From an uncultured Chloroflexia bacterium (GTDB lineage Bacteria; Chloroflexota; Limnocylindria; Limnocylindrales; CSP1-4), in assembly GCA_963766675.1 (NCBI GenBank), contig CAVYBA010000002.1:1274806-1338805 (forward strand): a DNA stretch of 64,000 bases. The letters run 5' to 3'. This document shows, one piece after another, positions 36,829-40,669 of the stretch. The position numbers were made by a program, and so were the translations under genes. The notes under the pieces are model-generated. The model searched no databases. It saw only the letters and a list, made by a program, of their open reading frames with translations, and was not told where the DNA came from. Positions within the stretch are counted from its first letter, which is position 1, and every line of letters begins with the position of its first letter.

Positions 36829-37782
36829 CTACTCGGCCGCGCCGAGGATCAGGGCGAGCATGCCCATCTTCAGGACGACGCCGTTGAACGCCTCGGCCCA
36901 GTAGCGCTGGTGGCGGGTGGCGTCGACGTCGGCCAGGAGCTCGTCCATCCGTGGCAGCGAGTGGAGGATGATCGAGCTGCGCTTGGCCTTCTCGCGCAGG
37001 AGCTCGCGGGTGACGCAGTACTCGGGCGGTGTCAGCCCGACCTGGTCGCTGCGTTCGACGCGCGACGCGGTGTAATCGGCCTGGACGACCGGCTCCATGT
37101 AGATGACGTCGGCCTGGTCGATGACGTCGCGGACGTCCGCGGCCTCTTCGTAGTCGACGTTGAGCGCGTCGATCTCGGCCTTGAACTCCGGCAGCAGGCT
37201 CATCTCCGGCGGCCCGACGACGATCGCCTTGGCATCGAACTGCGACAGCGCGTACAGGATCGAGTGCATCGTCCGCATCCGCATGTCGCCGACCAGCACC
37301 CAGGTCAGCCCGTCAAGCGTGCCCTTCTCGAGGAGCGTGGTGTACAGGTCGGTCAGCACCTGGGTCGGGTGCTCGCCCCAACCGTCGCCGCAGTTGATGA
37401 CCGGCACGGACGCCCACTTGGCCGCCTCGGCCGGCGCGCCCTGCTGGAAGTGACGGATCGCGATGACGTCGGCGTAGTACTCGAGCATATGGAACGTGTC
37501 CTTGATCGACTCCTGGTAGAAGTCGCCGGCGCGCGTCATCTTCGAGTCGGAGAAGCCGAGGACCTGGCCGCCCAGTCGGTGCATGGCGGCCTCGTGCGAC
37601 AGCCGCGTCCGGGTCGACGGCTGGTAGAACGCCGTCAGCATCGTCTTGTTCTTGAGCAGGTCGGTGTTGCGACGGTCGCGAGCGAAGGGGCGCAGGTCGT
37701 CGGCGACCTGGAAGACGCGAAAGAACTCGTCCCGACTGAAGTCCTTGAGGGACAGGATGTCGCGACCGAGGAAGCTCCTCAT
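36829..37782 (-). CDS. PyrB-like carbamoyltransferase paralogue with a non-canonical amino-acid site
   Basis: Carries QPSTRTRLSHE, IAIRH, GEHPTQVLTDL, GDMRMRTMHS and LHSLPRMDEL, as in ATCase catalytic chains. The region equivalent to TRVQKER reads EPVVQAD. Confidence 0.75.
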   Translation of the reverse strand: MRSFLGRDILSLKDFSRDEFFRVFQVADDLRPFARDRRNTDLLKNKTMLTAFYQPSTRTRLSHEAAMHRLGGQVLGFSDSKMTRAGDFYQESIKDTFHMLEYYADVIAIRHFQQGAPAEAAKWASVPVINCGDGWGEHPTQVLTDLYTTLLEKGTLDGLTWVLVGDMRMRTMHSILYALSQFDAKAIVVGPPEMSLLPEFKAEIDALNVDYEEAADVRDVIDQADVIYMEPVVQADYTASRVERSDQVGLTPPEYCVTRELLREKAKRSSIILHSLPRMDELLADVDATRHQRYWAEAFNGVVLKMGMLALILGAAE

Positions 37783-39173
37783 GACCTGGTGTCCTCCTGT
37801 ACGGGGTGACGGGTGATGCCCGAAAAGCAGATGACGACGGTCTCGTCTGGACGGAGCGCGCCGCTGCGCGCGAGCTGGAGCAGGCCGGCCAGACCGGCCG
37901 AACCGGTGGGATCGACGTCGATCCCGGTCGCCTCACGAGCGAGGTCGTTGGCGGCCTCGAGCGTGGGCTCGTCGACGACGAGCGACGTCCCGCCGGTGCG
38001 AAGCATTCCGGCGACGACCGCCTGCCAGTCGTAGGTCTCGTCGTCGAGGATCCCGTGGGCGACGCTGTGGGGCGTCTCCTCCCACGGCCACATGAATTCG
38101 GGACGATGGTGCGCGGCGAATGCCAGCGCCTTGTCGATCGACTCCCCGGCGGCGACGCGCTCGGCCACGCGCCCGTGGGCTCGAGCCAGCGGGAAGGCAC
38201 CCCGGGTCTGGACGGTGTCGAACCGTGGTGCATCGACGTGGATGCCCGCCGCGCCGGCGTCGGCGAAGCCGGCGATCACCGACGAGGCGAGCGCCCCGCC
38301 GCCGACCTGGATGACGACCCGGTCGATCCGCGACGGACCGTCGGACCGGCCGACCGTGGCCGCCAGTTCGAGGCCGAGCGTCTCGCCGCCTTCGACCGCG
38401 AAGGCATTGAGGTTCCCCTGGCAGGTGAACGGCAGGGCGCCCTCCGCGAGCGCATCGAGGAGCTCGAGATAGGTCGGATCGCCGGCGACCCCCGGGGTTC
38501 GCTCGCAGACGGCGAGCTCCGCGCCGAGTGCCCGCAGCCGCGCGACGACGGCCGGGTCGGCGTCGGTCGGGATGAACACGAGCAGCCGGCGACCGGCCGC
38601 CCGGGCGACCACCGCGGCGGCCAGCGCCGCGTTTCCGCAGCTGGCGATGGCCAGGGGCCGCTCGGCGCCGCTCCCGCCGACCTCGAGCTCGAGCAGGGTC
38701 CCGAACAGGTGCCGAGCCTTGTGCGACCCCGACACGTTGCCGGTCTCGTCCTTGACCCACACGCCTCCCGCGGCGGACAACCCGACGGCGTCTGACAGCG
38801 CGGCACTCCGGCGGAACGGCGTGACCCGGAAGCCATGGCCGTCGACCGCCGCGACCGCATCATCGAGCCGGCGGACCAGGCCGACGTAGTCATCGTCGCT
38901 CCAGCCGGCGGCGCGGGCCGCATGCCAGGCGTGGAACAGCTGGCGGTACGCGACGAACGGATTGGGGTCGTCGGCGCCCGTCAGGTGGTCGATCGACGAG
39001 CCGACGTGGCGGACCAGCACGTGGTCGATGCCGTCACCGTCGATCGCATTGGGGCAGACGAGCGGGACCGGCGTGCCATCGGCCGGCTGCATCCCGCAAC
39101 CGGCGCAGGCGAACCAGGTAGGTGGCCGCTCGGCCATGGCGGGCCGTCCCGTTGCCTCGCGCCCGACGGTCAT
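37779..39173 (-). CDS. fold-type II PLP enzyme, threonine-synthase-like
   Basis: SGSHKAR (PLP lysine), [21 protein letters not shown], and an N-terminal Cys-rich stretch FACAGCG...LVCPN. ATGA overlaps at both ends (39170-39173 and 37779-37782). Confidence 0.7.
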
Positions 39174-40669
39174 GACGCCGCGACGCCGGTCCGGTCGTTG
39201 AACTCGTCGATCATCGCGTCCCATGCCGGGAGCAGCGACCGCAGCTCACGCCACCAGGCCTGGTCGCGGCGCGCCTCGAACTCGTCGAGCGGGATTCCCT
39301 GCTGCTCCACCCAGGTGAAGTAGCCGAGGTTGAAGATCCGATCGCGATCTTCGCGGGTCAACTCGAGCAGGTGGTCCTGACCGGCGCCCAGGACGTGCCG
39401 TCCGAAGGTCTCGGCGGCGGCGACCGCGTCGAAGCCGCCGGGGAAGTCGCGCGGCAGGATCTTGTCGGCGAGCTCGGAGCGGTACATGGCCGCGCCGTCC
39501 GTCGCGATCGTGACGACCGCCTGATCGGGGCCGAGGCCCAGCCGCTTGGCCGTCTTGATCGCGGCCAGGATGTTGCAGATGCTGGAGATCCCGAGCGAGC
39601 CGAGTTCCTCGATCAGCGCCTGGGGGACGCCCCGCCGTTCGGCGAGGTACGTGCGACCGGCGTCGGTGTTGAACACGGCCAGGACCTGGTCGGTCGCGAC
39701 ATCCGAGATGGCGAGGACGAGATCGGTGTTGGTGACGTTGTGGATGAGCGGGACGTGCTTGTCGCCGATGCCCTGGATGTTGTGCTCGCCGAAGCCGTTC
39801 TCGAGCAAGGTCGGGCATTCGAGCGCCTCGACCGCGACGATCTTCGCGCCGTACCGATCCTTGAGCCAGTCGCCGGCGGCGATCGTGCCGGCCGATCCCG
39901 TCGCGGACACGAAGGCGGCGACTTCCAGCCGAGGGTGAGTCCGTCGCTCCGCGTCGACCACGGTCTCGAGCGCCCGACCGGTCACGAGGTAGTGGCCGAG
40001 GTGGTTCCCGAATTCGGCGAACTGGTTGAGGATCACGTTCGTCGAATCCAGGGCGAGCTCGGCGCAGGCGTCGTAGATCTCCTTGACGTTGCTTTCCGTG
40101 CCGGGCGTCCGGATGACGTCGGATGGGTCGGAGACCCAGGCGTCGAGCCAGTCGAACCGCTCCTGGCTCATGCCCTCGGGCAGGACAGCGACGCCGCGGC
40201 AGCCCATGATCCGGCTGATGGCGACGCCGCCCCGACAGTAGTTGCCGGTCGACGGCCAGATCGCCCGCTGTTCGATCGGGTCGAACTGCCCGGTGACGAT
40301 CCGTGGCGCCAGGCACGAGTAGGCGGCGAGGACCTTGTGGGCCGCGATCATCGGGAAGCGGTTGCCGAGCGCAACGATGATCGGTGACTCGACCCCGGTC
40401 AGCGACGTCGGCAGGACCAGGTGCTCAGGCACCGCCGCGCGCGAGCGGCGGTCGGCGTCGTTGAACCAATGGACGCGGAACAGGTTGAGCGGATCGGGTG
40501 CGTCCGGATCGACGCCGGCCAGTCGAGCCTCGACGCCGTCGGGGATCGTCGTCGGCTCCGACAGCTGCGCGAACGTGGGCATCCGGATCCTGGCATCACG
40601 GAAGCGCTGGACGGCGCCCTCGTAGACGCCTGTGTCCACGACGTCCCGCTCGAGTCCCTGTCGTCCCAT
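39170..40669 (-). CDS. fold-type II PLP enzyme, long cysteine-synthase/CBS-like form (499 aa)
   Basis: [10 protein letters not shown] (putative PLP lysine), [50 protein letters not shown] lies 5 nt before ATG 40669. Confidence 0.7.

Follow-up and report, generated by a model that had tools for sequence, protein, structure and literature searches.

Two adjacent genes in a 64-kb stretch of DNA from an uncultured Chloroflexia bacterium (the window in the following) encode pyridoxal 5'-phosphate (PLP)-dependent enzymes of fold-type II, which we name PLP1 (a protein with the fold of cysteine synthase, CysK) and PLP2 (a protein with the fold of threonine synthase, ThrC). The pair is most likely the terminal module of the reductive urate (2,8-dioxopurine/yanthine) pathway in a variant that is present in environmental bacteria. 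With moderate confidence we propose that it takes over the step of YgeX, the conversion of 2,3-diaminopropionate (DAP) to pyruvate and ammonia, with PLP1 as the core lyase and PLP2 as an accessory protein whose function is possibly stereochemical. The family assignments, the synteny and the co-occurrence described below are observations, from which we infer the reactions of the pair.

In the published pathway urate is converted via 2,8-dioxopurine, its dihydro form, ureidomethyl-hydantoin, 2,3-diureidopropionate and a mono-ureido intermediate to DAP and finally to pyruvate, the last step being catalyzed by the DAP ammonia-lyase YgeX (PMC12507026; 10.1101/2025.04.24.650524; PMC12990295). According to the published pathway work YgeX acts on both isomers of DAP. 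A commentary leaves open which configuration the ureido and diamino intermediates have, D (R) having been proposed (PMC12990295).

Family assignment of PLP1 and PLP2

Judged by profile scores, gene inventory and active-site residues, PLP1 and PLP2 are neither an ordinary cysteine synthase and threonine synthase nor YgeX. Both match the Pfam family PALP (PF00291; 44 bits for PLP1 and 134 bits for PLP2 at a cut-off of 35), which bears out their designation as fold-type II PLP enzymes in an earlier sequence-only reading of the window. On the cysteine synthase models of NCBIfam, PLP1 reaches 76.7 bits (TIGR01139, its top match; cut-off 350.95), 72.2 bits (TIGR01136, cut-off 344) and 28.8 bits (TIGR01138, cut-off 394). 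The top NCBIfam match of PLP2 is the ThrC model NF006050 with 82.9 bits against a cut-off of 303, and the serine/threonine dehydratase model NF006094 is matched with 68 bits. In the same scan, models for DAP ammonia-lyase (DAPAL) appeared neither among the seven matches of PLP1 nor among the best 25 of the 30 matches of PLP2; on the DAPAL models NF006058, TIGR01747 and TIGR03528, E. coli YgeX reaches 638-697 bits. Alignment with E. coli YgeX by hhalign gave probabilities of 45% for PLP2 and 2% for PLP1. Orthology of the pair with YgeX, which the sequence-only reading had likewise failed to see, is ruled out by these NCBIfam matches and hhalign probabilities. Sequence and profile searches of the PDB returned only distant relatives of CysK and ThrC and no nearer characterized enzyme.

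Homologues of the two proteins are publicly annotated as 'cysteine synthase' and 'threonine synthase', and taken at face value these names would make the pair ordinary biosynthetic enzymes. We give this explanation next to no chance. The scores fall far below the cut-offs (77 against 351 and 83 against 303 bits), PLP1 exceeds CysK in length by 180 residues and differs from it in an active-site loop, PLP2 carries Ala259 at the position of the arginine that we take to bind the substrate phosphate in ThrC, and the context of the operon is catabolic. Furthermore, the source genome (an assembly of 3.2 Mb and 87% completeness, whose relatives are labelled Limnocylindria/Chloroflexota) encodes two homologues closer to CysK (C2:508213-509079 and C2:1071009-1071914; 40% and 37% identical to the E. 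coli enzyme), and outside the locus of the pair it also carries a separate thrC-like gene and a separate pyrB. The sequence-only reading had named as its own refutation the case that the pair are the only biosynthetic cysteine and threonine synthases of the genome, and these additional genes speak against that case. Identity with ordinary CysK and ThrC is thus ruled out by profile scores, paralogue inventory and active-site differences. A homologue of YgeX was not found in the 87% complete assembly.

Occurrence in reductive urate gene clusters

Relatives of PLP1 with 62-91% identity are present in at least 598 species-level genomes from at least eight phyla (Chloroflexota, Actinomycetota, Acidobacteriota, Gemmatimonadota, Eisenbacteria, Planctomycetota, Armatimonadota and Pseudomonadota), including the isolates Propionivibrio dicarboxylicus DSM 5885, Rhodoplanes azumiensis and Pleomorphomonas sp. 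JP5. An exact-sequence look-up of the Pleomorphomonas protein gave no match. Neighbouring genes were counted within 8-10 kb of the seed gene in 159 loci, 80 of them seeded with PLP1 and 79 with PLP2, and the clustering of open reading frames (ORFs) was filtered by G+C content at third codon positions (GC3) against antisense shadow ORFs, which arise in DNA of high G+C content.

The two genes lie side by side in 135 of the 159 loci; PLP2 accompanies PLP1 in 69 of the 80 PLP1-seeded loci, and in 66 of the 79 PLP2-seeded loci the gene that immediately precedes PLP2, in the same orientation, is PLP1. By their gene content most of these loci reside inside reductive urate (2,8-dioxopurine) clusters. 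A selenium-type xanthine dehydrogenase (XDH) is encoded in 108 loci (49 PLP1-seeded and 59 PLP2-seeded) and SsnA in 104 (51 and 53). The corresponding numbers for PLP1-seeded and PLP2-seeded loci are 32 and 67 for a PyrB-like carbamoyltransferase, 24 and 31 for carbamate kinase, 11 and 14 for YgfK, 10 and 4 for HyuA, 6 and 2 for YgeY, and 2 and 0 for YgeX. A luciferase-like (F420-type) reductase is found in 12 of the 80 PLP1-seeded loci.

Single clusters illustrate the pattern. The gene order PLP1, PLP2, two carbamoyltransferases, carbamate kinase and XDH is kept in a metagenomic contig labelled Armatimonadetes by its source. Rhodoplanes azumiensis combines PLP1-PLP2 with a true YgeW (653 bits, cut-off 453), a YgeY-like M20 hydrolase, carbamate kinase, XDH and SsnA, whereas the cluster of Propionivibrio dicarboxylicus contains the pair together with an M20 carbamoylase, an Amidohydro_3 enzyme, XDH and SsnA. 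Three further clusters (L017, L009 and L059) encode orthologues of YgfK, SsnA, HyuA, YgeW and YgeY in addition to the pair, and all three are without YgeX. The Rhodoplanes locus (L082) is of the same kind, with PLP1-PLP2 at the place expected for YgeX. Two ureido-cleaving enzymes are encoded in every cluster variant examined, in the window in the form of two carbamoyltransferases. As far as gene content can tell, YgeX is the single canonical member that is consistently missing where the pair is present. Comparative genomics therewith supports the suggestion of the sequence-only reading that the pair functionally replaces YgeX in a ring-opening purine pathway.

Physical linkage of the two genes is not universal. 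In Acidimicrobiales PLP1 and PLP2 are unlinked and PLP2 sits among housekeeping genes, yet a PLP2 orthologue is present in all six genomes checked, including three that had been reached via loci with PLP1 only. Where a PLP1 locus lacks both XDH and SsnA within 10 kb, an SsnA-type gene was found elsewhere in at least 11 of the 16 genomes checked. The opposite extreme is met in two metagenomic cluster representatives (P0279 and P0280), in which the C-terminal part of PLP1 is joined to the N-terminal part of PLP2; the genes may be truly fused, or a frameshift error at the ATGA overlap of the two may mimic a fusion.

Genome-level co-occurrence and co-evolution

An evenly drawn sample of 201 Chloroflexota genomes, in which SsnA was counted as either the full-length or the short type, contains the PLP1 family in 23 and SsnA in 32 genomes. 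Of the 32 SsnA-positive genomes 22 carry the PLP1 family, compared with only one of the 169 SsnA-negative ones (Fisher p = 1e-20), whereas DAPAL exceeds its cut-off in five of the 201 genomes, just one of which is SsnA-positive. In Chloroflexota, the PLP1 family tracks SsnA and YgeX does not.

The distance matrices of PLP1 and PLP2 are correlated with a Mantel r of 0.75, and the values for PLP1 and PLP2 against XDH are 0.60 and 0.63, respectively. PLP1 has diverged less than PLP2 (mean distance 0.32 vs 0.41). A second, divergent clade of PLP1 (44-51% identity), represented in 19 genomes, is found together with full-length SsnA and is without PLP2, the orthologues of which accompany the close PLP1 clade only. 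Since the divergent clade keeps SsnA without PLP2 and PLP1 is better conserved, PLP1 appears to be central to the pathway and PLP2 to be an addition to it.

In one genome with the divergent clade, the PLP1-like gene (45% identity) is part of a ureide-type cluster of a different kind (L172; G105:C1:387000-406999, 9093-18432). Its neighbours encode a ThrC-like protein closer to the canonical enzyme (NF006050, 259 bits), a GT2 protein, carbamate kinase, a CT2-type carbamoyltransferase, a GntR regulator, a YgeY-like hydrolase, an 8-oxoguanine-deaminase-like protein and a HyuA-like protein.

Structural models and active sites

The AlphaFold2 model of PLP1 (pLDDT 90, pTM 0.92) shows a core as in CysK and cystathionine beta-synthase (CBS) with conserved helical extensions at both ends. 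Its top Foldseek matches are cysteine synthases and the CysK-fold enzyme Fn1055, with target TM-scores of 0.7-0.83. Lys112, the predicted Schiff-base lysine, is located at the start of the helix formed by residues 112-125. Invariant residues comprise, besides Lys112, the carboxylate loop S140-T141-G142-N143, Q216, the residues G258, S259, G261 and T262 of the phosphate loop GSAGT (258-262), D303-K304-H305, S362 and a C-terminal NLGY.TWVEQ block. The triad D303-K304-H305 belongs to a GIGDKH motif that occupies the place of the CysK GIGAGF loop and is invariant in 147 loci. To judge from these positions, the carboxylate-binding residues in the active site of PLP1 fit an amino acid substrate.

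For PLP2 (pLDDT 85, pTM 0.86) the top Foldseek match is ThrC of Aquifex (2zsj); serine and aspartate racemases, dehydratases (among them the structures 1pwe and 1p5j) and the Salmonella DAPAL (5ygr) follow lower in the list. Invariant residues are K152, S178-C179-G180-N181, G291-G293 (GGG) and a block seen in PLP2 only (FMWPWEE...DDETYDW: M361, W362, W364, E365, D377, D378, E379, T380, Y381, D382 and W383). In the Cys-rich stretch near the N-terminus C40 is invariant and C23, C26 and H51 are kept in at least 90% of the sequences. The nearly invariant Ala259 aligns with the arginine of the NPYRIEGQKT motif in 2zsj, presumably the substrate-phosphate-binding residue (Arg160 in the Thermus enzyme). 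In the hhalign alignment Lys152 and Cys179 of PLP2 correspond to Lys77 and Asp120 of YgeX. We take Asp120 to be the second catalytic base of DAPAL, acting together with Lys77, and the re-face serine of serine racemase to lie at the same position. Cys179 is invariant in about 140 PLP2 orthologues. PLP1 carries Lys112 and Thr141 where the Lys77/Asp120 pair of DAPAL was checked. The lysines K112 and K152, the glycine-rich phosphate loop and the x-G-N loop are without exception conserved in the family alignments of PLP1 and PLP2, and both proteins are, by the same alignments, under strong purifying selection.

Proposed reactions and alternatives

Selenium-type XDH, YgfK and SsnA, assigned by family, are provided by the operon divergent from the pair, and two carbamoyltransferases and a carbamate kinase, likewise assigned by family, by the genes that follow it. 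According to our proposal, 2,3-diureidopropionate, the ring-opened product, would shed both ureido groups by phosphorolysis, and the resulting DAP would be converted by the pair to pyruvate and two ammonia, such that the YgeX of E. coli and clostridia would be replaced. Pyruvate could pass to the pyruvate:ferredoxin oxidoreductase (PFOR) encoded nearby. PLP1, with its CysK fold, its full set of PLP- and carboxylate-binding residues and its invariant GIG-D-K-H loop, is the candidate for the core beta-eliminating enzyme. PLP2 would be accessory, either as a racemase/epimerase or as a lyase for the other enantiomer, by means of Lys152 and the invariant Cys179.

Enzymes of the CysK type are L-specific. 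The idea of a stereochemical function for PLP2 arises because the canonical intermediates are proposed to be D-configured, YgeX takes both isomers, CysK-type enzymes do not, and PLP2 has a cysteine at the position of the second base. In its most detailed form, PLP2 would be a new fold-type II racemase/epimerase that turns the D-DAP (or albizziin) of the pathway into the L-form via a two-base mechanism with Lys152 and Cys179, and PLP1 would be a new DAPAL of CysK fold which degrades the L-form with the aid of GIG-D-K-H as a leaving-group loop, both proteins forming a physical complex. All these details together are unlikely to be correct, even though a PLP1-PLP2 complex would explain the translational coupling, the co-evolution and the occasional fused reading frames.

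A two-step relay would account for the need of two enzymes and for their coupling. PLP1 would in this case convert DAP to serine and ammonia, water replacing the beta-amino group, and PLP2 would act as serine dehydratase to form pyruvate and the second ammonia. There is precedent for the first step in Fn1055, a cysteine (hydroxyl) lyase of CysK fold that forms serine from cysteine (PMC12940168) and ranks among the top structural matches of PLP1. The resemblance of PLP2 to serine/threonine dehydratases (68 bits on NF006094; 1pwe and 1p5j) would suit the second. PLP2 is, however, nearer to ThrC than to the dehydratases, a counterpart of the critical Asp232 of Fn1055 could not be established in PLP1, and SsnA accompanies the divergent PLP1 clade in the absence of PLP2. 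We therefore consider the relay improbable.

The sequence-only reading had put forward a beta-ureido or beta-amino alanine-type product of ring opening as a substrate. In the beta-ureido case one or both enzymes might eliminate urea from albizziin, leaving aminoacrylate and thereby pyruvate. Albizziin is a proposed intermediate of the pathway, the CysK family makes and breaks C-N bonds at the beta-carbon including those of the ureido type (O-ureido-L-serine synthase is among the weak PDB matches), and the source genome carries outside the window a full-length urease-alpha-like gene (C2:226128-227792), although its 535 bits stay below the curated cut-off of 680. The two ureido-cleaving enzymes in all cluster variants examined would already suffice to reach DAP, and elimination of urea would waste the ATP that can be gained via carbamoyl phosphate and carbamate kinase. 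DAP is thus the likelier substrate, and for urea elimination a slim chance is left. The pair was also considered as a stand-in for HyuA in ring opening. PLP chemistry depends on an unsubstituted alpha-amino group, and HyuA is itself encoded in some of the pair-bearing clusters (L009, L045 and L059), which led us to reject this candidate.

Several observations weigh against DAP cleavage by the pair in place of YgeX. True DAPAL is absent from 25 of 30 pair-bearing genomes checked, but the remaining five possess one in addition to the pair. In three of these genomes (G019, a Pleomorphomonas, G013 and G010) it adjoins XDH-SsnA while the pair is located elsewhere, and in one locus (L045, 8717-12870) the gene of a DAPAL (NF006058, 333 bits, cut-off 276) immediately precedes PLP1-PLP2. 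Because DAPAL coexists with the pair, once even in the same cluster, the pair is not merely a redundant YgeX. About one third of the PLP1 loci are without XDH or SsnA within 10 kb. CysK-type enzymes usually retain aminoacrylate for attack by a nucleophile rather than releasing it. From a chemical point of view one enzyme should be sufficient for the deamination of DAP, and the need for two is explained by inference. Finally, HyuA is missing from the cluster in the window, where the upstream chemistry may accordingly differ from the canonical route. At the level of the individual cluster, pair and YgeX exclude each other in most cases.

The locus L045 belongs to a metagenome-assembled genome of the Dermatophilaceae, in which DAPAL and the pair share one YgfK-SsnA-HyuA-XDH cluster; the related Phycicoccus cluster L059 does not contain DAPAL. 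Outside the window but on the same contig, the source genome encodes a second pair of carbamoyltransferase and carbamate kinase as well as a HyuA-like hydantoinase/dihydropyrimidinase (C2:397508-399345 and C2:1085173-1086546). The latter is 42% identical to E. coli HyuA and could supply the ring opening that is missing from the cluster.

Coexistence with true DAPAL in five genomes, in one of them within the same cluster, would also be compatible with an altogether different function of the pair, be it the catabolism of other beta-substituted or D-amino acids or sulfur or selenium chemistry for the selenium-type molybdenum hydroxylase, so that the link to urate would be indirect. In Pleomorphomonas sp. 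JP5 (L078, 8440-9666, (-)) the pair is divergent from a gene of the Beta_elim_lyase family (threonine-aldolase-like) and a TetR regulator gene, and the XDH-SsnA-DAPAL cluster resides on another contig; in Propionivibrio the pair adjoins XdhC, YqeC and MocA-like maturation genes. However, in E. coli and clostridia the pathway operates and its enzymes are matured although the pair is lacking, YgeX is the sole canonical member systematically missing where the pair occurs, and the carboxylate-binding residues of the active site fit an amino acid substrate. An unrelated function consequently appears rather improbable to us.

Comparison with known systems

With the reductive urate cluster of gut bacteria (Li et al., 2025; Liu et al., 2025) the window shares selenium-type XDH, YgfK, SsnA, a YgeW-like carbamoyltransferase and carbamate kinase, but it lacks YgeX, YgeY and HyuA from the cluster and has the pair and a second, PyrB-like carbamoyltransferase instead. 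YgeX (compare the Salmonella enzyme, PDB 5ygr) and the pair have in common the fold-type II PLP superfamily and the role of a PALP-family member in clusters with XDH, SsnA, YgfK, YgeW and carbamate kinase. In contrast, YgeX is one protein, whereas here two proteins from the CysK and ThrC branches, without family-level homology to YgeX, are predicted to share the activity, and the second-base position is occupied by Asp120 in YgeX and by cysteine in PLP2. PLP1 shares with CysK (TIGR01139) and Fn1055 (PDB 5b53) the core fold, the Schiff-base lysine, the S-T-G-N loop, Gln216, the G-S-A-G-T phosphate loop and a serine facing the pyridine nitrogen (Ser362); it differs from the about 310 residues and the GIGAGF loop of CysK in its 499 residues with conserved extensions, GIGDKH and its catabolic context. 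Fold, N-terminal Cys-rich stretch, GS(F/H)K(D/A)R motif and AS(T/C)GN loop link PLP2 to ThrC (NF006050/TIGR00260; PDB 2zsj and 1uim), from which it is set apart by Ala259 in place of the arginine in NPYRIEGQKT and by the unique FMWPWEE...DDETYDW block. Most likely, then, two enzymes not orthologous to YgeX replace it in a pathway that has been described only recently, and they represent two uncharacterized enzyme families, as far as sequence comparison reaches.

Full-text literature searches found the pathway papers of 2025 and the commentary, and no paper on the pair. In the neighbourhood network of Li et al. (2025; PMC12507026) any neighbour with PF00291 is coloured as YgeX, and the pair is hidden there because all such neighbours are counted as YgeX. 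The reductive urate pathway was worked out in 2025 in gut bacteria only, and the pair would mark a widespread environmental version in lineages from soil, groundwater and freshwater (Chloroflexota, Actinomycetota, Acidobacteriota, Gemmatimonadota, Eisenbacteria, Pseudomonadota and others). Since annotation says 'cysteine synthase' and 'threonine synthase' and published neighbourhoods count YgeX, pathway predictions for these organisms would be wrong or blind at the pyruvate-forming step. The reason for the presence of two enzymes would bear directly on the stereochemistry of the intermediates and could reveal a fold-type II active site containing cysteine. With Propionivibrio dicarboxylicus DSM 5885 and Rhodoplanes azumiensis as culturable carriers, the question is experimentally approachable.

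Organization of the locus

Table 1. Features of the window around PLP1 and PLP2 (coordinates refer to the 64-kb window)
Feature	Position	Strand	Remarks
PLP1	39170-40669	(-)	499 aa, CysK/CBS-fold PLP enzyme; first gene of the operon; extensions N-terminal (~1-90) and C-terminal (~400-499)
PLP2	37779-39173	(-)	464 aa, ThrC-fold PLP enzyme; N-terminal Cys-rich (zinc-ribbon-like) stretch
PLP1 Lys112 codon	40334-40336	(-)	motif AAHKV; lysine predicted to form the Schiff base, conserved without exception in 32 family members
PLP2 Lys152 codon	38718-38720	(-)	motif GSHKAR, present in 134/159 loci; aligned with E. coli YgeX Lys77
PLP2 Cys179 codon	38637-38639	(-)	motif ASCGN; position of YgeX Asp120 (hhalign); ASCGNAALA/SSCGNAALA in 140 loci
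ATGA overlap, PLP1 stop/PLP2 start	39170-39173	(-)	also seen at L081 and L086
ATGA overlap, PLP2 stop/PyrB-like carbamoyltransferase start	37779-37782	(-)	AGGAGGA upstream
Shine-Dalgarno-like GAGGA	40675-40679	(-)	5 nt before the PLP1 ATG
PyrB-like carbamoyltransferase	36829-37782	(-)	downstream of PLP2
Ornithine carbamoyltransferase/YgeW-like carbamoyltransferase	35813-36790	(-)	downstream of the pair
Carbamate kinase	34752-35711	(-)	downstream of the pair
Selenium-type XDH	41005-43638	(+)	TIGR03311, 946 bits (cut-off 830); divergent operon
Short SsnA	43662-44684	(+)	NF005540, 254 bits, model positions 57-340; divergent operon
YgfK	44617-48099	(+)	TIGR03315, 848 bits (cut-off 835); divergent operon
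PFOR	21313-25095		~13-16 kb from the pair

The lengths and boundaries of the two ORFs given in the sequence-only reading agree with the translations of the (-) strand, and both ATGA overlaps as well as the motifs quoted there (IAAHKV with K112, SGSHKAR with K152 and FACAGCG...LVCPN) are present. The overlap between PLP1 and PLP2 points to translational coupling of the two genes. PLP1 heads the operon, as had been supposed, because it is the first gene after a divergent intergenic region of 335 bp. The distance of about 15 kb to PFOR was likewise estimated correctly (Table 1). An alternative reading of PLP2 with 481 aa from the ATG at 39224 was discarded; this start lies inside the coding region of PLP1, the homologues measure 464-467 aa, and their genes keep the ATGA overlap (as at L086). 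With GC3 values of 0.87-0.91, PLP1 and PLP2 resemble the other genes of the window with its 70% G+C; they are real genes, and chance ORFs are excluded.

In the intergenic region 5' of PLP1 neither a riboswitch or other Rfam family (Rfam scan) nor a sigma-70-like promoter was found. A G+C-rich leader hairpin of 8 bp followed by TTCCTTGT is located at 40693-40715 (-), about 25 nt upstream of the PLP1 start.

Further downstream, the strand of the pair encodes a BMP-family ABC importer, an aminotransferase, a transketolase-like protein, a LysR regulator and PFOR, and an 8-oxoguanine-deaminase-like gene lies beyond the divergent XDH, SsnA and YgfK genes. The short SsnA of the window has 340 aa. Within the Chloroflexota sample, a short match of identical type is found in three genomes related to one another (G117, G189 and G216), and copies with 76-91% identity occur in several related loci. 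Because the short form recurs in this way, it is a conserved variant and no assembly artefact. The block encoding the aminotransferase and the transketolase-like protein of 807 aa (25133-34694, (-)) recurs together with the BMP-type ABC importer in a few related loci (L018, L022 and L064), and block and importer may form a separate conserved module.

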